From: a virus
Lineage: Duplodnaviria; Caudoviricetes
DNA: 56,674 bases
Direction: 5' to 3' (one strand)
Virus record (IMG/VR): IMGVR_UViG_3300034021_000712
Coordinates: 1 to 56,674 of that record
The notes beneath the pieces were generated by a model. It saw nothing but the letters and a program-made list of their open reading frames with translations. It was not told the origin of the DNA and did not search any database. The position numbers and the translations under genes are program-made. This document shows, piece by piece, positions 23,375 through 35,832 of the stretch. Every line of letters begins with the position of its first letter. The stretch's first letter is position 1.

Positions 23375-24184
23375 TTATAAGTAATTAGTTACAATAACAA
23401 CTCCAGATTTTCCATCGGCACCTCTGAAGCTGTGAAAGTGCCCGCCAGATCCACCAGCACCGTATGCAGCATGATCTTGATGGTTATGACTAAAGTTGCC
23501 TCCGTTAGGCCAACCAGCAGCAACGGCACCACCAAAGTGAGATGCACCACCTAATCCGCCGCCGCCCATTCTATGGTCTGTATGACCAAATCCTCCACCA
23601 CCCCATACATTTAGATCACCACCAGAACCATTACGACCTAAGCCACCAGAGTGAGCATTAGTTCTATTTGCACCATGACCACCTCCAGCAGATAGATATC
23701 CACCAAAAGAACTAGAGCCACCATCGTTACCAAAACCAAAATACCATGTTCCAGTTCCTGCACCCCCAACAGTTACGGAAACAGAAGATACAGATTCAAC
23801 ATTAATGACTCTTTCAGCATAGCCACCAGCACCACCAGATTCTGAGTGACCAGATCCACCGCCGCCGCCTGCTTGAACTCTAACATGAATATATCTAACA
23901 CCAGTTGGTCTACTCCAGGTTCCATTACCAGTATAAACATTCATTGAAGTAATGTTACCAGAAGAAACTGCTGACCAGCTCAATGAAGTTCCATTAGTGG
24001 TAAGAAATTTTCCAGATTGACCAGAAACTGAAGGAATAATAGAGTTGGATGATCCACCAATTGTTCCTTCAATAACGATATCAGTTACCGTTAAAGTTCC
24101 AGCAACAGAAATTGTGCCATTGGAAAAAGTAAATCCACTGGATCCTGTTAAGTCTTTAATATTTGATACTTTTAATACTGCCAT
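23375..24184 (-). CDS. Glycine-rich fibre/adhesin-like protein, paralogue 3
   Basis: N-terminal LKVSNIKD, GKFLTTNG..LSW linker, Gly-rich domain with GGAGGY and GVVIV end. Confidence 0.8.
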   Translation of the reverse strand: MAVLKVSNIKDLTGSSGFTFSNGTISVAGTLTVTDIVIEGTIGGSSNSIIPSVSGQSGKFLTTNGTSLSWSAVSSGNITSMNVYTGNGTWSRPTGVRYIHVRVQAGGGGGSGHSESGGAGGYAERVINVESVSSVSVTVGGAGTGTWYFGFGNDGGSSSFGGYLSAGGGHGANRTNAHSGGLGRNGSGGDLNVWGGGGFGHTDHRMGGGGLGGASHFGGAVAAGWPNGGNFSHNHQDHAAYGAGGSGGHFHSFRGADGKSGVVIVTNYL

Positions 24185-24188
24185 GGTT

Positions 24189-24989
24189 TTACTTGTAATG
24201 TGTAACTACAACAACACCTTCTTTTCCATTGGAACCCCTAAAGCTATGGAAGTGACCACCAGATCCACCAGCACCGTATGCAGCATGATCTTGATGGTTG
24301 TGACTATAGTTTCCCCCATTAGGCCAACCAGAAGCTACTGAACCGCCGAAATATGAATTACCTCCAGTTCCTCCACCATATGCAAAGTGACATTGACCAC
24401 CTCCACCCCATACATTTAGATCACCACCAGAACCATTACGACCTAATGCTCCATTATGAGCCCCATTCTCATTTGCACCATGTCCACCTCCAGCAGAACA
24501 ATATCCACCGAAGGAACTAGTTCCACCACCTCCACCAAAGCCAAAATAATACGTTCCGCTTCCCCCACCACCAACTGTTACAGAAACAGATGATACGCTA
24601 GTTACATCAATAATTCTTTCAGAATATCCACCAGCACCACCAGACTCACCATGACCAGATGCACCTCCACCTCCACCTTGAACTCTAACCTGAATATATT
24701 TAATTCCTGTTGGCTTATTCCAGGTTCCACTACCTGTGAATATTTGCATAGAGTTAATATTTTCACTGGAAACAGCAGACCAACTTAAAGAATTACCATT
24801 AGTGGTCAAAAATCTATTCTGATTTCCAGATTGAGATGGAATAATTTGGGTTGAACTACCACTTATTGCACCGTTAACAGTAATATTTTGAACTCTAAGT
24901 GTTCCTGTGCTAGTAACACCACTAGAATTTAGGGAGAATCCCCCAATTCCAGCAATATCTTTAATATTAGCTACTCTTAATGTGCTCAT
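24189..24989 (-). CDS. Glycine-rich fibre/adhesin-like protein, paralogue 2
   Basis: Colinear with its neighbours over the full length. Confidence 0.8.
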   Translation of the reverse strand: MSTLRVANIKDIAGIGGFSLNSSGVTSTGTLRVQNITVNGAISGSSTQIIPSQSGNQNRFLTTNGNSLSWSAVSSENINSMQIFTGSGTWNKPTGIKYIQVRVQGGGGGASGHGESGGAGGYSERIIDVTSVSSVSVTVGGGGSGTYYFGFGGGGGTSSFGGYCSAGGGHGANENGAHNGALGRNGSGGDLNVWGGGGQCHFAYGGGTGGNSYFGGSVASGWPNGGNYSHNHQDHAAYGAGGSGGHFHSFRGSNGKEGVVVVTHYK

Positions 24990-24993
24990 TTTC

Positions 24994-25794
24994 TTACTTG
25001 TAATTTGTAACTACGACTACACCATACTTACCATCAGAACCTCTAAAGCCAGAGAAATGCCCTCCAGATCCACCCGAACCATATGCCGAATGGTCTTGAT
25101 GGTTATGACTAAAGTTGCCACCATTAGGCCATCCAGCAGCTACTGAACCACCAAAGAATGAACCTCCACCAGTTCCTCCACCGTGAGCAGTATGAGACTG
25201 ACCACCTCCACCCCATACATTAATATCACCGCCAGAACCATTACGACCTAAACCACCAGAGTGCCCATTATTTCTAGCAGCACCATGACCACCACCAGCA
25301 GAACAATAACCACCAAAGGAACTAGTTCCTCCGTCGTTTCCAGCATTAAAGTAGTAAGTTCCTCCACCGCCGCCACCAACTGTAATTCCTACAGATGTTA
25401 CAGATTCCACATTGATAATTTTTTCAGCATATCCACCAGCGCCGCCAGATTCACCATGACCAGCGCCGCCGCCGCCGCCACCTTGAACTCTTACATGCAC
25501 ATATTTTACACCAGTTGGTTTATTCCAAGTGGAATTGCCAGTGTAAACATTCATAGAAACAATGTTTTCTGACGATAACGTGCCCCAAGTAAGCTTAGAG
25601 CCATCAGTGCTTAAGTATTTTCCAGATTGACCAGACTGTGGAGGTATAACTTGAGATGATTGCCCAGTGATATTACCGTTAATGACTAAATTACCAACCG
25701 TAATAGTTCCGCCTGCAGAAGCAGAACCACTGTTCATGGAAAATCCACCAGTTCCAGCAAGGTCTTTAATATTTGATACTTTTAGAGTGCTCAT
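24994..25794 (-). CDS. Glycine-rich fibre/adhesin-like protein, paralogue 1
   Basis: Colinear with its neighbours over the full length. Confidence 0.8.
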   Translation of the reverse strand: MSTLKVSNIKDLAGTGGFSMNSGSASAGGTITVGNLVINGNITGQSSQVIPPQSGQSGKYLSTDGSKLTWGTLSSENIVSMNVYTGNSTWNKPTGVKYVHVRVQGGGGGGAGHGESGGAGGYAEKIINVESVTSVGITVGGGGGGTYYFNAGNDGGTSSFGGYCSAGGGHGAARNNGHSGGLGRNGSGGDINVWGGGGQSHTAHGGGTGGGSFFGGSVAAGWPNGGNFSHNHQDHSAYGSGGSGGHFSGFRGSDGKYGVVVVTNYK

Positions 25795-26093
25795 AATTGA
25801 TTTTTATAGTCTAAAAATAAGGAATAAAATTCCCCATCTTTTCCTGGAATTTTGTTATTATTTATATCGTTCCATAGGGAATCAAGTAAATCTAATAAAC
25901 TTATTGGTTTTTTGTCACCAAGATTCTTAAAGATTTTATTTTCTTCTTCTATTATTTCATCAGGATGTGGTCTTTTGGTGTCTTCATCATACCATAGCAT
26001 ATCATGTGGGTTATCGTCAACCATTATAAATTTAGCATTTGGATTACCCGTTAAATTAGTAATAGCCTGAGACCAATAATATCTTCTATTCAT
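25791..26093 (-). CDS. Small XkdW-like/fibre chaperone-like protein
   Basis: WYDEDTKRP and LLDSLWNDI motifs; follows a fibre gene. Confidence 0.55.
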   Translation of the reverse strand: MNRRYYWSQAITNLTGNPNAKFIMVDDNPHDMLWYDEDTKRPHPDEIIEEENKIFKNLGDKKPISLLDLLDSLWNDINNNKIPGKDGEFYSLFLDYKNQL

Positions 26094-27001
26094 TATCCTC
26101 TAATTTCCATAGCATAGAATGCAGAGATCGATCTCATATCATTAGAAACACGATCATTAATATATAGATCTCTAACTGAACCACTCCAAGATGCGGATGC
26201 TCTTACTCTATATCTAACAGGAACCGTAACACCAGGAGAATCTCTAAAGATTATATGATGGTTATACATATAATCTGTAGTATCTTGACCATCATATACA
26301 GTAGAAATTGATCCTGCACCAACGTTTGAATTTCCAGAAAGCCCAGAAGTTAAAAGACTACCATCTCTGGAAAAGCCAAATGATGTTACATGTGTTGCAG
26401 AGCAATTAATCATTGCAACTAAAAGTATCTTCGAATTTGTATGAGTGGGCTGAATAGAAATTTCTAGTTCAGGAATGTCAGCACTGCTATCCAGATCTTG
26501 TGAACGAATTAGATATCTTGTTGGTGATGAGTGAACCATTCTAACCTGAACAATTTCACCTTCTCTTAGGTCATTATCCTCACCACCCATGATGAGCCAA
26601 CTTGCACCATTTTCAATAGTTACTGTGTAATTATTGTCAACCTGAACAGGACCAGCAGTGAATCCATTTGTGAATTCTGCACCACCATTAGCAACAGGAC
26701 CTACAGTTAAATTTTCAGAGATATTGGTTCCATTTGTTCTGATGATTGACTTTTCACCAACAGAAGGACCGCCACCACCAACATCTGTCCAACCAGGAAC
26801 ACCCTGTCTAGCATCAGCAACCCAAATTTGAGCTTGGTCTGCAGTGGTATTGAATACCATAGTTCCCACTGCAGGAGTTCCCAAAGCATTAATTTGGGTT
26901 TGATTTAAGCCTTGCAGTGTGAGTGATTGTGATAGTGAAAGTGTGGTCATTAATGCTCTAGTAGAAGCATTAATTTGTGACTCTATAATTTTTGTTGCCA
27001 T
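26093..27001 (-). CDS. Tail fibre-like structural protein
   Basis: GTMVFNTT, SIIRTN..ISEN, GPV.V...VTI, C-terminal ISIQP...SKILL...MEI domain. Confidence 0.75.
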   Translation of the reverse strand: MATKIIESQINASTRALMTTLSLSQSLTLQGLNQTQINALGTPAVGTMVFNTTADQAQIWVADARQGVPGWTDVGGGGPSVGEKSIIRTNGTNISENLTVGPVANGGAEFTNGFTAGPVQVDNNYTVTIENGASWLIMGGEDNDLREGEIVQVRMVHSSPTRYLIRSQDLDSSADIPELEISIQPTHTNSKILLVAMINCSATHVTSFGFSRDGSLLTSGLSGNSNVGAGSISTVYDGQDTTDYMYNHHIIFRDSPGVTVPVRYRVRASASWSGSVRDLYINDRVSNDMRSISAFYAMEIRG

Positions 27002-27022
27002 GAGTTTATAAGAATAAGGTTA

Positions 27023-30000
27023 TTAGATTACTAACTCACGGATTTGAATTACATCACCAGTTTGTGGAACTGTAGACACGGAAAAGTCTACAGCATTACC
27101 AGTAACAGTATAATCAACTCCAGGAACTTGACATACACCGTTCAAGAATACGAGAACGGAATATGCAGTGTGCCCCGAAGAAATAGCAAAGGTAGATTGA
27201 ACCCCATTGCCATTATACGTTACACCATTATTGCTATTGGTAATACCAGTAGCTAATCTATATTTATCCGCGCACCCATATGATCCAGTAATATCAATGT
27301 TACCTTGAACATACACATTACCAGCAATCTTCATCCTGTTGGATGCATCTGGAGCCATACCAATACCATAGTTGGTAGTGCCAGAATATCTCTGAGATGT
27401 TATTGGCGTGGTATCAGATAATCCGAATTTATACCATGTTGCAGAATCATAAATCCAACCTAATGCTTGACCAGGAGCCCAATCCTGATTGTATACCATA
27501 TCACCATCATTAAATGCTAATCCAGCTGGGAGATCAGGTAAGCCCTGAGCATTCTCTTCTGCTAAGAAAGATTGCTTAAGAACTGTTCCATCTGCATTTG
27601 TATAGGTAAACTTCAGCGTTTGAATATTGTCAAGTGAAGTTACCTTTTTCTGGAATGTTACAGGACCAGAAAATACAGATTCTAACTGGTTAGATGCACC
27701 ACCAATTACGGTTAGTTTATCAGTTAAAACCAATTCTGAGAAAGTTTGGATTGTTGTATTTTCTTCACCCAAAACATTAAGTTGTGCAATGTCAGCATTA
27801 GTAATCTGACCAGTAACTGGGTTAACAACTTGGTTACCAATGAAGAGGTCACCGTTAGAGTTTAGACCAGAATAGAATGCAACGCCCGCTGCTTCTTTTA
27901 GTGACTGAGATAATCTAACTTGAGAATCAGTTAAAACTTCAACCTGCGTTGAGGGGAATGCAGTAGAATAGTTACCAGGACCAAAACCAAGATATTCAAA
28001 TGTGTGGTTACCTGAACGTAGAATTGAATATCTTCTCAATTCTACAGGAATTGGCTCTACAGAATTATCAGCTTCTCTGATTTTTAGTGGAATTTTTCTC
28101 TGCTCTGAATCACCAAGTCTAGCAGTTACTGTAATGCCATTCAAGACGTTAGCAACTGTAGTATATCCAAGATTATTTTCAGTTTCTTGTAAGAAGAATT
28201 GTGCAGTTTCTTTTGTGATCGATCTTTGAGCATCAAGATTTGGTGTTGGGGTTGCACCATCTGTAGCATATACTAATCCAATTGTCTCGTTATCTGCAAT
28301 AGATACCGAAGCTTGAGGATCAGCATTTGGGTTGTCTCTATCAAACGAAGGATATACCTCATTAACGTTCTGAGAGAACTTAAAGTCATTAAAGTTGTCT
28401 GTTGTAGGTGAAACAGAGGCAGAAAGAACTGAAAGATAATAAATTCCGTCTTGCTCACCACGAATAAATTCTTGGTATGTTTCAACTTCATACACATAAT
28501 AAATTTTATTGTATGAAGGAGAATTGGTTTCAGATGATCTTGGTTGCATTACGAAACCAGTAATAGGTTCTCTAGGAACTGGGAATGAATCTTTATCTAG
28601 AAGATATCTAAATCTATAGATTCTATCAGTTAAGTTTCTTGCATCGGGAACTCTTCTAATATATGAAGTTGGCGTGAATCCAAGATTTTGATATTGTGAA
28701 TTGGCAAGAAGAGTAGTATAGATGGTATTTACGTTTCCATCAACTTGAAGATACCAATTAGATCTGCCAGAATCCCATTTAATTGGATTATTTGGATCAT
28801 CTGCTGCAGTTCCAGTAACATCAGTTCCAGCAGGTTGAATATTAGCATAATGAACTGTTGGTGTAGTTGCACCAGATGCAATCAGCGAAACATATAATCT
28901 ATCTGGTGTATTAACGTTATCTCTTCTAGCACCAATTGTATAGCCTTGAATTTTTGTTGGTGGTGGAGCAGACTGATTGGTATATCCGTATAAGTAAAGC
29001 TTAGTTTGATCTGCTGCAGCTCTTGTCTTTTGAATATCAATTGTAACCCAGTTTACAGAAATCTCAGGAACATCACCTAAAGATTTTGGAGGGATTATAT
29101 GTGTAACTTGACCAGCTTTATCTTTAGTAAATGCTGCAGCCTTAAAGCCTTTACATCTTAATGATGTATTACCAAAGTTGGAGTTAGAGTTGGTGATCGA
29201 CATGTCACCACCACTATCAGCAAAGAAGTGATCGCCAAATCCAACAGCGAACACAGAAACAACCTGAATAAAAGCATCATTTGAAGCTTTAACGTGGCAA
29301 TGTCTCCAGCCTTTTCTATATTTGCAAAGACCATTGATGTGAGCACCAGATCCTGCAGTTTGTGGTTCGTAGTTGCCTGTATTGGGATTATAGAGAACAA
29401 ATGCTCTGTCATCCTTTTGTAGAGAAATTCCAGTAAACTGCGCAACAACCATGGATTTAAAGCCAGTAGCTCTAGATCCATCAGCGTGCATACCATTAAT
29501 TCCCCACACGGAACGTAGGGATAGGTTGAACATGTATGGAGAAGCAGAGTCTACTGTATCAATTTCAACCTTAACTAAGATATTATTTCCAATTGCATTA
29601 CCAGAAGGTTCTGCTGACATCTGATATGTAAATTGGTTACCCTGCGCAGATGTAACCAAGAATGAGCCATTATATAATAACTGGTCTTGTTCAGTCGGCC
29701 CTACAACACCAGAAACGTTAACTGCAACACCAACTGAGAATCCGTGGTTTTTAGGATTACCTAGTTCGTCAACTGTAAATGCTGTAGCAGTCTGACCATT
29801 ACGAATAATCTGAGAAACTGCAAATTCGTCAGAGATAGGACCAACGATTCTATTTTCTTCGACTCTTGCTTGGATCTGATCCTGAGAAATAACTCCAGAA
29901 GTATCAGGAATAGTAGCGTAAGCTTTTGAAATCTTTTGGTAGTAAAGATCTAGATCTTCTTTACTTGCATATTCAAAGCAAGTTAATTTGTGGTGAGAGA

Positions 30001-32778: not shown

Positions 32779-34104
32779 CTACCATCCTGATTGAAAGAAG
32801 TTTATAAGTCTTAATTTTCCACCAAAAGCTGGGGCGGAAATCGGTCCCCCAAAAGAAACACCAACCTGACCTACGTTATTTGTTGATAATAGCTCAGCAT
32901 TAGCATTTGGGAATTTAATAGTAACTGCTTCTGTAATATTAGAAGCATCTATTGTAATTATACCATTAAGTGACTGTGGATTATTTATCTGAACATCTTC
33001 TAAAACTTTATTAGCAAGTGTTTGACTTGCTAATGTTGATACTAAAGTATTTACTCCTAGAGTATTTAAATCTTCTGCTGGGAATCTAAATGGTATAGTT
33101 CTGTTTTCACCAACATTACTAATATCAAAAGATACTTTTTTAGTTTCAAAAGTAGTATCAGAAAAAATTGCACCTTTATACACTTTGTTTGTCAGTGTTT
33201 GTGATGCATCAGTTCCAACCAAAATAACATTAAGGTCAGGGAATGTTACTGTTCTATTCTGTGTAATACCCGAAGCGTTAAACGAGACTTTTCTAGTTGG
33301 AACCTGAGGATCAGTAGATGGAGTATTAGAGAATGTTGGGTTAACTAAATTTTTATTGAAAGCATTCTGCTCAGAAATATCATCCAGTAATGTAGATTGC
33401 CCAGGACCTACACCAAAATCAGGCAGTCTATAAATTTTAGTTCCAGGTGCTTCCCATGCATCACATTCGAATCTTGCAATCTTTGTAGTATCAGAAGATC
33501 CTGTTATTGAAAAATCATTATCTTTAATGATAATTGATTTATTGGTAATAGTTTGAACAGTATCATTACCAAGAAGAGTGGTAGAAGTAAAGGATCCAGT
33601 ATTAGGAAGAGCAAATCTTCTAACACCAGATCCTGTAGAGATACCAGATACTTCAAATGTTGCTAGTTTACCAGGGTTTTGATCGTCAATAATGAAAAAC
33701 TGTGAATCAGTAAATCTAGAAGAACCATTAACAGTAAAATACCCAGATCCTTGTGGGGTTATTTGAATATTAGAGTTAGACGAAAAGGTATCAATTCCTC
33801 TAATAACAATGGTGCTAGAACCATCTGTATTTTGTGTTCTTGAATTATAAAGAGCAGTGGTTCCGAATGAAATTCCAATTTCATTTACTGCAGACTGATA
33901 TAATCCAGTGTCACGATCTAGGTCAAAAGCTAAACCTGGATTTGCTTTTGATCCTGCAGAAACACCTTTGAATAACTGATTGATTTTTGCCTTCCTATTT
34001 GGAATCAAAGGATCCGAAATGATAATAGGCAAAAAAGCCTCTCCAGTTACAACTGAATCGGCTAGTGGTTCTAATTGAGATATTCTTTTATATAGTAAAG
34101 CCAC
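32779..34104 (-). CDS. Virion structural/fibre shaft protein
   Basis: KRISQL, PGLAFDLDRDTGLY, repeated QT(I/L)(T/A)NK shaft motifs. Confidence 0.75.
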   Translation of the reverse strand: MALLYKRISQLEPLADSVVTGEAFLPIIISDPLIPNRKAKINQLFKGVSAGSKANPGLAFDLDRDTGLYQSAVNEIGISFGTTALYNSRTQNTDGSSTIVIRGIDTFSSNSNIQITPQGSGYFTVNGSSRFTDSQFFIIDDQNPGKLATFEVSGISTGSGVRRFALPNTGSFTSTTLLGNDTVQTITNKSIIIKDNDFSITGSSDTTKIARFECDAWEAPGTKIYRLPDFGVGPGQSTLLDDISEQNAFNKNLVNPTFSNTPSTDPQVPTRKVSFNASGITQNRTVTFPDLNVILVGTDASQTLTNKVYKGAIFSDTTFETKKVSFDISNVGENRTIPFRFPAEDLNTLGVNTLVSTLASQTLANKVLEDVQINNPQSLNGIITIDASNITEAVTIKFPNANAELLSTNNVGQVGVSFGGPISAPAFGGKLRLINFFQSGW

Positions 34105-34129
34105 TATTATCTACTGGTGCAGTTTTCTC

Positions 34130-34137
34130 TATTTATA
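34130..34137 (-). promoter_or_regulatory. T4-type late promoter
   Basis: TATAAATA on the minus strand, 25 nt upstream of the structural gene run. Confidence 0.75.
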
Positions 34138-34144
34138 AACTTTA

Positions 34145-34217
34145 TGCCCGTGGTCGGATTCGAACCAACACTGTATGGATTCTAAGTCCACCTTCTCTAC
34201 CGTTGGAATACACGGGC
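34145..34217 (-). tRNA. tRNA-Leu(UAG), short variable loop
   Basis: GCCCGTG/CACGGGC-A acceptor; GTGGA-CTTAGAA-TCCAT anticodon arm; 5-nt variable loop; TTCGAAT T-loop. Confidence 0.92.
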
Positions 34218-34292
34218 TGGTGGCGGGGGGTGGAGTTGAACCACCTACCTGAAGCTTATGAGACTTCTGTGCAACCGTTACACTTCCCCACT
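34218..34292 (-). tRNA. tRNA-Met(CAU), initiator-like acceptor, encoded CCA
   Basis: AGTGGGG/CCCCGCC-ACCA with 1:72 mismatch; GAAGT-CTCATAA-GCTTC anticodon arm. Confidence 0.88.
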
Positions 34293-34304
34293 ATGAAAGG
34301 AGTA

Positions 34305-34338
34305 AATATACTCCTGTTTTTTGAGGATGTCAACCCTC
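34305..34338 (-). promoter_or_regulatory. Sigma70-type promoter for tRNA-Met/tRNA-Leu
   Basis: GAGGG-TTGACA-TCCTC; TTGACA-17 nt-TATATT. Confidence 0.78.
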
Positions 34339-34341
34339 TAC

Positions 34342-34490
34342 GCTCGGCTCGCCACCTATTTAGTTATCGAGCAAATAGGAATCTCGGCGGGAGTATACCT
34401 CCATCCGCACCAGTCGGCATTTATATTGCCCATCCGACGAGGGCAAATGGGTCATATTGACTCCACCACCTAATTTACACAAACTAGGAA
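34342..34490 (-). ncRNA. Structured ncRNA: three tandem pseudoknot/hairpin modules with UGGYG (wcaG/manA-like cyanophage RNA)
   Basis: TTGCCC/GGGCAA stem with loop GTCGG pairing CCGAC; CGAG/CTCG stem with loop CCTATTT pairing AAATAGG; CCTAGTTT/AAATTAGG stem; each followed by TGG(T/C)G. The family name is recalled, not searched. Confidence 0.72.
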
Positions 34491-34708
34491 AGAAGTAACT
34501 GCAATAACTTTGCTAGTTCGATCATAAAGAAAAAACTACAAATAATTACAGTATCCCACATTTTGTGTTTTACAAAAGATGGGATAAGAAGTGATCCAGC
34601 TATTAGTTTAATAACTAAACCAAACTGCAAATCTCCCCAAACCATAATGAAGTAACCGATAATGACAAATGCATTACCAACGTATCGCAATAAAGTGAGA
34701 TTAGACAT
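34484..34708 (-). CDS. Small three-TM membrane protein
   Basis: 74 aa hydrophobic ORF (LRYVGNAFVIIGYFI...HKMWD). Confidence 0.75.
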   Translation of the reverse strand: MSNLTLLRYVGNAFVIIGYFIMVWGDLQFGLVIKLIAGSLLIPSFVKHKMWDTVIICSFFFMIELAKLLQLLLS

Positions 34709-34710
34709 AA

Positions 34711-34756
34711 GGGGGTTCTCCCGACCAGGGCTAGTTTTAGGTCATACCGAGACCTA
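34711..34756 (-). ncRNA. 5' module of the manA/wcaG-like structured RNA
   Basis: TAGGTC-TCGGTAT-GACCTA hairpin, then TGGTC and a GGG-AGAA-CCC hairpin, immediately 3' of tRNA-Ala. Confidence 0.5.
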
Positions 34757-34827
34757 TGGAGAATACCAGAGTCGAACTGGTGATTGATGCTTGCAAAGCA
34801 CCCGTTTTACCACTAAACTAATTCCCC
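34757..34827 (-). tRNA. tRNA-Ala(UGC)
   Basis: GGGGAAT/ATTCTCC-A with the G3:U70 identity pair; loop TTTGCAA. Confidence 0.92.
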
Positions 34828-34865
34828 TGGCGGCCCTTTTGTTAACGGGGTAGAGCCGAACCCCG
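34828..34865 (-). ncRNA. Putative small H-type pseudoknot RNA ending in CCA
   Basis: CGGGGT-TCGGCTCT-ACCCCG stem; loop CGGCTCT pairs with downstream AGGGCCG; ends CCA flush with position 1 of tRNA-Ala. Confidence 0.55.
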
Positions 34866-34870
34866 AGACT

Positions 34871-34900
34871 ACTTTAGAGTATGGACCTCTATTTTGTCAA
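34871..34900 (-). promoter_or_regulatory. Sigma70-type promoter
   Basis: TTGACA-18 nt-TAAAGT. Confidence 0.6.
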
Positions 34901-34901
34901 G

Positions 34902-34986
34902 CGGAGGGAGGGGGAGTCGAACCCCCAAGGCTTTTACACTCAACTGTTTTCAAGACAGGTTCCGTCGCCAATCGGATTGCCCCTCC
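34902..34986 (-). tRNA. tRNA-Ser(UGA)
   Basis: GGAGGGG/TCCCTCC-G; loop CTTGAAA; long variable arm; G73. Confidence 0.92.
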
Positions 34987-35026
34987 ATAATGTGGGGGTT
35001 TCCCCCCAACACTTCCTTCACACGGA

Positions 35027-35098
35027 AGCCCCCGACAAGATTCGAACTTGCGACCAGCGGTTTACAAAACCGCTGCTCTACCACTGAGCTACAGAGGC
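35027..35098 (-). tRNA. tRNA-Thr(UGU)
   Basis: GCCTCTG/CGGGGGC-T; GCGGT-TTTGTAA-ACCGC. Confidence 0.93.
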
Positions 35099-35104
35099 AT
35101 ATCC

Positions 35105-35371
35105 CTATAAAGGAATATCTTGTGGATTTTCAATGTGCTCCTCGATTTGGAATAAGATTGGATGACAACCTTCCATAATCAAGTAGTTACTATATCTATA
35201 CAAGTCTTCCATGTCATAAGATGCCATTTTCGGATTTGCATTGTATAGTTGTTCTTGAAAGTCTTCCTCTAACTCATCAAAAGTGAATGGCATTTTGTTT
35301 ATAAAAAACATTTCGACAACACCAACGTTAGTTAATGTGCAGTATGCTTTTTCGATCTTTAGTTGTTTCAT
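35105..35371 (-). CDS. Hypothetical protein within the tRNA cluster
   Basis: 88 aa, MFFINKMPFTFDE...YLIMEGCHP. Confidence 0.75.
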   Translation of the reverse strand: MKQLKIEKAYCTLTNVGVVEMFFINKMPFTFDELEEDFQEQLYNANPKMASYDMEDLYRYSNYLIMEGCHPILFQIEEHIENPQDIPL

Positions 35372-35385
35372 GGAAGACTTCCACT

Positions 35386-35409
35386 TTCATAGAATATTTA
35401 TTCTATGAA
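35386..35409 (-). promoter_or_regulatory. 11-bp inverted repeat containing a late-promoter-like ATAAATA
   Basis: TTCATAGAATA-tt-TATTCTATGAA immediately 3' of tRNA-Leu(UAA). Confidence 0.55.
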
Positions 35410-35482
35410 TGCCCGTGGTCGGATTCGAACCGACCCTTGAACGATTTTAAGTCGTTTGCCTCTTCCGCTGGGCTACACGGGC
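35410..35482 (-). tRNA. tRNA-Leu(UAA), short variable loop
   Basis: GCCCGTG/CACGGGC-A; AACGA-CTTAAAA-TCGTT; 5-nt variable loop. Confidence 0.92.
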
Positions 35483-35492
35483 ATTTGAGACA

Positions 35493-35520
35493 ATCTTAGC
35501 AGAACTGCTCGGATTGTCAA
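35493..35520 (-). promoter_or_regulatory. Sigma70-type promoter
   Basis: TTGACA-16 nt-TAAGAT with extended TG, inside a GACAATC/GATTGTC inverted repeat. Confidence 0.65.
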
Positions 35521-35521
35521 G

Positions 35522-35594
35522 TGCTCCTTGAGGGGATCGAACCCACCTTAGCCGAATTATGAGTTCGGTGCATTCGCCAGATTGCTAAAGGAGC
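35522..35594 (-). tRNA. tRNA with CAU anticodon (elongator Met or lysidine-modified Ile2)
   Basis: GCTCCTT/AAGGAGC-A; CCGAA-CTCATAA-TTCGG. Confidence 0.88.
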
Positions 35595-35600
35595 AACAGG

Positions 35601-35672
35601 TAGGAATACTGGGAGTTGAACCCAGACTACCCCGTTATAAGCAGGGCGCTCTAACCATTAAGCTATATTCCC
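35601..35672 (-). tRNA. tRNA-Ile(UAU)
   Basis: GGGAATA/TATTCCT-A; CCCTG-CTTATAA-CGGGG. Confidence 0.9.
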
Positions 35673-35704
35673 ATGAAGCGATTAATCAACTATAATCGCT
35701 TCAT
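35673..35704. repeat. 12-bp perfect inverted repeat directly 5' of tRNA-Ile
   Basis: ATGAAGCGATTA-atcaacta-TAATCGCTTCAT. Confidence 0.75.
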
Positions 35705-35832
35705 ATTCGACCTGTTGCGTTCAATCGATTCTTTAAAGCTTGTCTACGCTTTTTAGCAGAGCGTAATGCTTGAGGCTTCAAATGTCTCTTCTGCTCTTTT
35801 TTAGAGTGATGCTGCCAGTTTGGAAGATTCAT
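35701..35832 (-). CDS. Small basic protein (43 aa)
   Basis: Manual translation MNLPNWQHHSKKEQKRHLKPQALRSAKKRRQALKNRLNATGRI; promoter upstream. Confidence 0.7.
   Translation of the reverse strand: MNLPNWQHHSKKEQKRHLKPQALRSAKKRRQALKNRLNATGRI

Follow-up and report, generated by a model that had tools for sequence, protein, structure and literature searches.

The window analysed here is a stretch of 56,674 nucleotides (nt), positions 1 to 56,674 of the IMG/VR virus record IMGVR_UViG_3300034021_000712, and represents part of the genome of a T4-like cyanomyovirus. Among phage records the nearest are Synechococcus myoviruses, and 0.71-0.92 of the sampled window words are present in lake or freshwater metagenome runs from 8 studies. 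On the minus strand, within a cluster of eight tRNA genes that all lie on that strand, we find an array of structured RNA modules that ends in an RNA of the wcaG family (Rfam RF01761). We call the modules X, Y, PK1 and PK2, the last two being the pseudoknots of the wcaG RNA itself. On balance we favour the view that the wcaG RNA makes up the final part of a larger, four-module folded array closing the tRNA cluster of T4-like cyanophages, and that the UGG strands of this array dock a partner. A first-pass annotation, made from the sequence without database searches, had flagged 34342-34756 as a periodic array of modules carrying UGGYG. It overlooked a conserved open reading frame (ORF) at 34708-34484, which takes up 225 of the 415 nt so flagged.

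Layout of the locus

From 5' to 3' along the minus strand, the array and its neighbours are the following.

34900-34871, minus strand: sigma-70-type promoter-like site TTGACA-18 nt-TAAAGT, a 10/12 consensus match only, upstream of tRNA-Ala; candidate start of the array-carrying transcript
34827-34757, minus strand: tRNA-Ala(UGC), without encoded CCA; its 3' end lies 2 nt ahead of the X hairpin
34754-34711, minus strand: module X, placed by motif positions and covariation; no Rfam match
34708-34484, minus strand: ORF of 74 amino acids (aa), phrog_2318 (PHROG E = 2.3e-21)
34488-34449, minus strand: module Y, placed by motif positions and covariation; no Rfam match
34446-34341, minus strand: wcaG RNA (RF01761) by Rfam covariance model, comprising PK1 with UGGUGCGGAUGG, hairpin P2 (34402-34389) and PK2 with GUGGCGAGC
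34338-34323, minus strand: hairpin GAGGG-UUGACAU-CCUC, with the -35 hexamer of the following promoter in its loop and no U-tract behind it
34333-34305, minus strand: sigma-70-type promoter TTGACA-17 nt-TATATT, an 11/12 consensus match, between the array and tRNA-Met
34292-34218, minus strand: tRNA-Met(CAU), CCA encoded; first gene 3' of the array
34217-34145, minus strand: tRNA-Leu(UAG), directly after tRNA-Met

The motif occurrences on which the first-pass annotation was built are all where it had placed them: UGGUG at 34468-34464 and 34412-34408, UGGCG at 34354-34350 and UGGUC at 34727-34723, with spacings between the first three of exactly 56 and 58 nt. The helices it had named are likewise present, both for PK1 (UUGCCC 34446-34441 with GGGCAA 34431-34426, and GUCGG 34438-34434 with CCGAC 34417-34413) and for PK2 (CGAG 34386-34383 with CUCG 34371-34368, and CCUAUUU 34379-34373 with AAAUAGG 34361-34355), as is the hairpin of its third module at 34488-34469. 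The motif by itself is frequent, TGGYG occurring 348 times in the whole window against 126 expected, a count inflated by the GGTGGT repeats of fibre-like genes. TGGTG is dense at about 23400-27700 on the minus strand, where glycine-rich GGTGGT repeats lie in large structural (fibre-like) genes. Since TGGYG is so common in the window, a motif count alone is not significant, and the weight rests on conservation in other phages.

The array ends in a wcaG RNA

The RF01761 model matches 34446-34341 on the minus strand over positions 1-98 of its 98, scoring 49.6 bits where the gathering threshold is 42, with E values of 2.3e-08 to 2.8e-06 across searches. The alignment holds the exact junction strands UGGUGCGGAUGG and GUGGCGAGC, and the three model helices are present, helix 1 with two non-standard pairs as aligned by the model. 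The identity of this segment as wcaG RNA is secure. What the first-pass annotation had put forward as a resemblance to wcaG is thus a true member of the family, above the Rfam cut-off. In the RF01761 consensus helix 1 is followed by UGGUGCGGAuGG and helix 3 by GUGGCGaGc, and therefore two of the annotated cases of UGGYG following a helix are the known wcaG junctions. In this consensus the UGGY strands are unpaired and stand between independent helices.

The family has been rated a probable riboswitch in potential 5' untranslated regions (UTRs) of exopolysaccharide and high-light genes, according to the portion of Weinberg et al. 2010 (PMC2864571) that treats it, and the motif is listed in the genome descriptions of two cyanophage papers. 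No ligand or function for wcaG is named in the literature that we located on the topics of wcaG riboswitches, phages and orphan riboswitches, and a 2020 review of orphan riboswitches does not mention wcaG. The complete genomes of S-CAM7, S-SRM01 and Syn9 each contain one wcaG copy. In 151 genomes sampled from the cyanobacterial phylum no copy was found, at most 25 candidates being scored in each. In S-SRM01 (L002 1540-1746) a hypothetical-protein coding sequence (CDS), and in Syn9 (L328 2629-2787) gp208, overlie the wcaG RNA, and both are probably spurious.

Modules X and Y

The upstream modules X and Y match none of the 4227 families of Rfam 15, either in the window or in one compact array from another phage. 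Y is made up of the hairpin 34488-34469 abutting UGGUGGAGUC (34468-34459), a small hairpin GUC...GAC and a closing GACCC (34453-34449). The sequence UGGUGGAGUCA...GACCC was observed about 50 nt 5' of wcaG in most wcaG loci, its exact 10-mer lying within 75 nt upstream in 28 of 46. In 54 sequences the Y hairpin is 94.2% paired, with compensatory changes in four of its seven pairs. Like wcaG, Y is present once per genome in all three complete phage genomes (S-CAM7, S-SRM01 and Syn9).

X consists of a hairpin (34754-34740, loop UCGGUAU), an A-rich linker, the strand CUGGUCGG at 34728-34721 and a GGGAG...CCCCC tail, of which GGGAG is Shine-Dalgarno-like and lies nine bases ahead of the AUG of the small ORF. 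A further module with CUGGUCGG is present in many wcaG loci. Across 94 X modules the stem is 98.4% paired and all four of its pairs show compensatory changes. In the same modules a loop base and a linker base three positions 5' of CUGG (C34749 and G34731 in the window) form C-G in 74 cases and U-A in 20, and are unpaired in none. This covarying pair implies that X is more than a hairpin; no contiguous pseudoknot helix could be derived around it. A second candidate pair between loop and linker (columns 21/37) was 41.5% paired and was not accepted.

X and Y may be regarded as undescribed relative to Rfam 15 and the main texts of the papers concerned; published supplements may already cover the pseudoknots, the flanking conservation and the gene contexts.

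Covariation of the wcaG and Y helices

We aligned 28 loci carrying both Y and wcaG with MAFFT, blind to structure, and compared the pairing of specified helices with 500 shuffles. In the specified helices 89.5% of cells were paired against 75.3% after shuffling, and none of the 500 shuffles reached as high a value. Changes on both sides of a pair were observed in 5/5 pairs of PK1 stem 2, 6/6 of PK2 stem 2 and 3/4 of the PK2 pseudoknot stem. Sliding the partner strand by 1-3 columns lowered pairing to 30-55%. Stem covariation, a point on which the first-pass annotation had allowed that its reading might fail, is thus found across related phage contigs.

The exception is the PK1 pseudoknot stem 1, which is only 57.9% paired as fixed MAFFT columns because loop lengths differ. 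A free search for this stem gave it weak support, 21 of 500 partner shuffles being as good; among loci of the window's subtype the stem alternates between GCCC/GGGC and GUCC/GGAC. A minimum-free-energy fold of 34760-34293 had z = -4.25. Pseudoknots are not representable in such a fold and some UGG strands are partly paired in it, and it was not used to judge accessibility.

The array in related phages

An exact wcaG-core pattern run over viral contigs returned 120 loci, of which 46, the window included, were kept as true wcaG. About 74 were GC-rich chance matches, removed with a stricter regular expression and by eye; in the course of curation L034, L094 and L100 were judged false, L080 proved to duplicate L056, and L005 was included manually. 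Scanning with the Y pattern only gave 84 new loci, 81 of them cyanophage arrays by inspection, L131, L139 and L182 being dropped as chance matches. The same Y scan of bacterial and archaeal genomes was uninformative: the 120 matches listed came from unrelated taxa, and 16 specified bases in 596 Gb would give some two thousand by chance. TGGTGCGGATG, TGGCG and TGGTGGAGTC were themselves the search patterns, and their invariance in our alignments is therefore built in; the conservation of the junction strands is shown independently by the upper-case letters of the Rfam consensus.

The wcaG pattern by itself yielded 42 loci with at least 450 nt upstream; of these, 38 have Y, 36 X, 34 both, 40 either and 2 neither. 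In all, an array of the type X-[ORF]-Y-PK1-PK2 recurs in 124 cyanomyovirus contigs. The commonest order, X~Y.1.2, is that of the window and accounts for 32 of the 124 arrays; here 1 and 2 stand for PK1 and PK2, and the long gap between X and Y (about 260 nt) is the phrog_2318 ORF. The compact order X.Y.1.2 is found in 27, and X.Y~1.2, with a gap of about 280-380 nt after Y, in 12. Adjacent modules are spaced by a median of 53 nt (range 38-103, 248 gaps). We therefore consider the periodic array to be real and general, and the earlier description of a regular row in which UGG follows a helix holds and extends to all 124 related loci.

Reduced and rearranged versions were also observed. Five arrays have neither PK1 nor P2, PK2 coming directly after Y in four and after X in one (the orders include Y.2 in three arrays, X~Y.2 in one and X.Y.2 in one). 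The order of X and Y is occasionally reversed to Y.X, and one array (L125) is permuted, running PK1-tail, X, Y, PK2-tail (1.X.Y.2). In Syn9 a Y-type tail is attached to PK2, and in S-CAM7 an extra pseudoknot resembling the window's PK1 and closing with UGGCGCG is placed between Y and a canonical wcaG (L001 1540-1587), which makes a five-module array. A common grammar underlies all the modules: a head, then unpaired UGG with one or two further bases, then a second small helix. The head is either an H-type pseudoknot that opens with GUUUC or a hairpin that has a GGR loop and an A-rich linker. Heads and tails recombine in these arrays. The grammar is strand-specific, TGGYS following GGR-loop hairpins in 141 of 390 sense cases as against 5 of 122 antisense.

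tRNA synteny and downstream context

The first-pass annotation tied the array to tRNA genes on the strength of the window, and the tie is borne out elsewhere. Of 95 arrays, 84 have a tRNA gene on the same strand that stops no more than 1500 nt upstream of their first module; for 3000 nt the figure is 71 of 75. Every tRNA in the array loci (437/437) is on the array strand, and in seven loci, the window among them, a tRNA directly abuts the first module.

Downstream, a strict sigma-70-type promoter was found within 130 nt of 52 of 109 arrays, compared with 68 of 2000 control windows, and in 9 of the 109 tRNA genes begin 31-58 nt 3' of the array. In the window itself the array is followed not by an exopolysaccharide or high-light gene with the RNA in its 5' UTR, but by a promoter-like site, tRNA-Met and tRNA-Leu. 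No terminator-like site was found on the minus strand within 34100-35800.

This context bears on the classical riboswitch reading, in which the wcaG core would be a single small-molecule aptamer, for a sugar nucleotide for example, gating read-through of the next hairpin or terminator, and X and Y would be unrelated or an accessory leader. The rating by Weinberg et al. 2010 speaks for it, as do the two pseudoknots and the highly conserved unpaired strands. Two further observations support it and count against the docking array that we favour. A T-run, with a hairpin equivalent to that at 34338-34323, lies within 90 nt downstream of 91 of the 109 arrays, as expected of a riboswitch expression platform; and in isolates the genes downstream are often of sugar-nucleotide or high-light type, including glycosyltransferase, GDP-mannose dehydratase, mannose-6-phosphate isomerase and hli, as reported in the section of Weinberg et al. 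2010 (PMC2864571) on this motif. However, the next genes in the window are tRNA genes behind their own promoter-like site, with no U-tract terminator on the minus strand, so that the published 5'-UTR view does not fit the window copy; this argues against its being a classical riboswitch for the gene that follows. For the family as a whole the view is strained by the sigma-70-type promoters that stand between RNA and downstream gene in nearly half of the arrays, by an upstream context (X, Y and tRNAs) far steadier than the downstream genes, and by the reduced and permuted module sets. The literature that we located also reports no ligand. We regard this reading as unlikely, if a serious contender.

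Promoter-like sites of the sigma-70 type also occur inside the tRNA cluster, at 35493-35520 as well as at 34871-34900 (both minus strand), and therefore the cluster may be read as several short units. Between the latter site and tRNA-Ala, at 34870-34828 (minus strand), lie a hairpin CGGGG...CCCCG, an A-rich stretch and GCCGCCA, a grammar loosely like that of X, without UGG. The tRNA-Met at 34292-34218 has an A1-C72 mismatch atop its acceptor stem and is joined to tRNA-Leu with no spacer; it alone of the eight neighbouring tRNA genes has an encoded CCA.

Small ORFs in the array

The ORF at 34708-34484 encodes a hydrophobic, presumed membrane protein of 74 aa belonging to phrog_2318, with no Pfam match. 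In the protein atlas its nearest clusters, scoring 0.91-0.92, are those of DUF6552 and of viral proteins annotated as hypothetical, which we take as a lead only. Its UAG stop (34486-34484) falls in the Y hairpin. An ORF of phrog_2318 also lies 5' of wcaG in S-CAM7 and in S-SRM01, being unannotated in the latter. Where the long gap comes after Y instead, it usually holds one of two other small-ORF families (26 loci inspected). Proteins of family A (for example in L105, L021 and L174) start MTPYELRFEIFKQ, often with a CA-repeat leader ahead of the gene, and those of family B (for example in L142, L126 and L017) start MATKGTAAKSA and are coiled-coil-like.

These ORFs suggest an alternative in which the modules serve housekeeping and gene shuffling. 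X would stabilise the 5' side and act as translational operator for the small ORF, Y and wcaG would stabilise the 3' side or signal processing, and at the DNA level the modules, with the composite of hairpin and promoter, would act as recombination joints, similar to the PeSL elements of T4-like phages, at which small ORFs are swapped. Three small-ORF families do occupy module boundaries (phrog_2318 that of X and Y, the other two that of Y and wcaG), and the interchange of X.Y with Y.X would suit such joints. It would also explain why the X tail has GGGAG ahead of the ORF start and the Y head its stop; and the closing hairpin with its sigma-70-type promoter fits the PeSL description, as given in the relevant part of PMC2839356. 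Against this, Y and wcaG occur once per genome and are not dispersed repeats, and the conservation of the unpaired strands together with a covarying tertiary pair exceeds the needs of a stabiliser hairpin. The 2014 PeSL paper (PMC4122927) has 0 occurrences of 'cyano' or 'cyanophage'. We consider this alternative distinctly unlikely.

The UGG strands and their possible partners

The first-pass annotation had proposed that the unpaired UGGY strands pair with the NCCA ends of uncharged tRNAs in the manner of a T-box, and so would sense or sequester tRNAs of the cluster or of the host, a possible means of blunting the stringent response. UGGU and UGGC do complement ACCA and GCCA, and seven of the eight neighbouring tRNAs would end in A or G followed by CCA after CCA addition. 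In the Rfam consensus every UGGY is unpaired, with a helix on either side, UGG shows no covariation with the PK2 loop, which changes to CUCG in the window, and the linkage to tRNA clusters is tight (84/95 arrays). Phage-borne structured RNAs are also known beside tRNA genes, namely GOLLD, ROOL and the T4 stable RNAs C and D.

However, the usable complementarity amounts to 4 nt (4-5 nt), which is generic to almost any tRNA, and TGGYG is common in the window. T-box covariance models gave no match at E up to 10 in either 34000-35800 or 34293-34756, and no Stem-I-like specifier element was found. Here UGGY is a junction between independent helices and not a bulge in a helix competing with a terminator. 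The base after UGG is only ever U or C, so there is no covariation with discriminator bases to score, and the synteny may merely reflect a shared hyperplastic early region. Pairing with tRNA ends is, in our view, very doubtful. More doubtful still is its fullest form, in which an extended array would present up to four T-box-like docking sites for acceptor ends, be co-transcribed with the tRNA cluster and capture or sense uncharged tRNA 3' ends in infection. Were that true, wcaG would be the first known case of a regulatory RNA binding tRNA apart from the T-box family, and the first such case from a virus.

A second proposal for the partner is a protein. The array could be a sponge of the CsrB/RsmZ kind, or a decoy similar to a type III antitoxin, that titrates a host RNA-binding protein or an RNase toxin; the latter had also been put forward in the first-pass annotation. 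GGA or GGG is present in the 7-nt loop of most X heads and of the second type of Y head, with more GGA/GGAG in the tails, and successive modules come at intervals of ~53 nt. In the window itself, however, the X loop carries GGU and not GGA. No CsrA gene was found in the window or in the three complete cyanophage genomes, and of the 151 sampled genomes of the cyanobacterial phylum 29 have CsrA, none of these being identified as hosts. As to the decoy form, Tandem Repeats Finder gave 0 rows at a minimum score of 30 in 34200-34900, the modules share only short motifs and are not near-identical repeats, and there is no ToxI match. No toxin gene, ToxN-like or otherwise an endoribonuclease, is adjacent to the array, whose neighbours are tRNA genes and the phrog_2318 ORF, the padloc library not having been searched. 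A sponge or decoy is hardly credible on this evidence.

A model for the array

Five features of the locus are observed: membership of the wcaG family, the helices with their two pseudoknots, the order and spacing of the modules, the tRNA synteny and the promoter-like site after the array. From these we propose that the array would be co-transcribed with the upstream tRNA genes, and that its 5' side would be freed by tRNA 3' processing. Every module would offer a short conserved unpaired strand, UGG with one or two further bases, between two helices, and these strands would be the docking sites for a trans-acting partner, which could be a protein, a tRNA end or a metabolite. Since the X strand would overlap the ribosome-binding site of the small ORF, and the Y head its stop codon, binding and translation could affect each other.

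Besides the T-runs and the downstream genes of isolates, several points weigh against this model. The four tails are mutually different and each is single-copy. It is possible that the modules are four distinct parts of one folded RNA, either a large aptamer or the scaffold of a ribonucleoprotein, and not equivalent docking sites. The set of loci was gathered with exact core patterns and is skewed to canonical sequences, and the promoter calls are consensus matches only. The array is supported in RNA libraries by a single 268-nt metatranscriptome contig (depth 2.7, one mismatch, over 34350-34578), for which a DNA origin is possible. The remaining RNA-library runs cover only tRNA genes, often those of other organisms with mismatches; such contigs give no transcript ends, strand or expression level, and the parts they leave uncovered are uninformative.

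As a family, the wcaG core is already in the catalogue. What is new by comparison with Rfam 15 and the main texts is X and Y, the embedded ORF, the synteny with the tRNA cluster, the modular variants and the promoter between the RNA and its 'target'. An orphan riboswitch candidate since 2010, wcaG in its catalogued 98-nt form is usually just the end of a larger, single-copy array that includes two structured modules absent from the catalogue. This array regularly accompanies the tRNA cluster of cyanophages, a promoter often parts it from its supposed target genes, and its modules can be lost, swapped or split by small ORFs. The comparative picture supplies testable constructs (X, Y, PK1 and PK2, singly and together) and partners to try with them (tRNA ends, proteins and metabolites). 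If X and Y are confirmed, they would merit family models of their own or an extended wcaG model, and the CDS annotations that lie over these RNAs could be corrected.

Comparison with known systems

The closest known system is wcaG (RF01761) itself. The window copy has the full model length, the three helices, both junction strands, both pseudoknots and a T4-like cyanophage setting. It differs in that its PK1 is a long-loop variant, in that tRNAs behind their own promoter follow it, and in being joined to X, Y and a small ORF, which the Rfam model does not include.

As in T-boxes, UGG and one further base stand unpaired between helices and can complement tRNA 3' ends, and the array is linked to tRNA genes. 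In contrast to them, it has no model match and, in the window, neither a Stem I or specifier nor a competing terminator; its UGGY is a junction, and there are four sites in place of one. Antitoxins of the ToxI type and the STAXI motif, the latter as presented in the corresponding part of PMC2864571, also have pseudoknot or hairpin modules in a regular row. In the array, however, the modules vary in sequence and kind, there are no direct repeats and no partner toxin gene, and an ORF can intervene.

PeSLs, as set out in the sections of Arbiol et al. 2010 (PMC2839356) and Comeau et al. 2014 (PMC4122927) that describe them, resemble the locus in that a closing stem-loop is joined to a sigma-70-type promoter and that small non-essential ORFs abound in the region. 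In the window the hairpin at 34338-34323 carries the -35 hexamer of the 11/12 promoter, both being predicted from sequence, with no U-tract. Only this closing element of the array is PeSL-like; Y and wcaG are single-copy structured RNAs, and those sections do not describe PeSLs in cyanophages.

GOLLD, ROOL and the T4 stable RNAs C and D are the remaining parallel. Like the array, they are non-coding structured RNAs that lie beside a phage tRNA cluster and are codirectional with it, and compared with them the array is much smaller and is modular.

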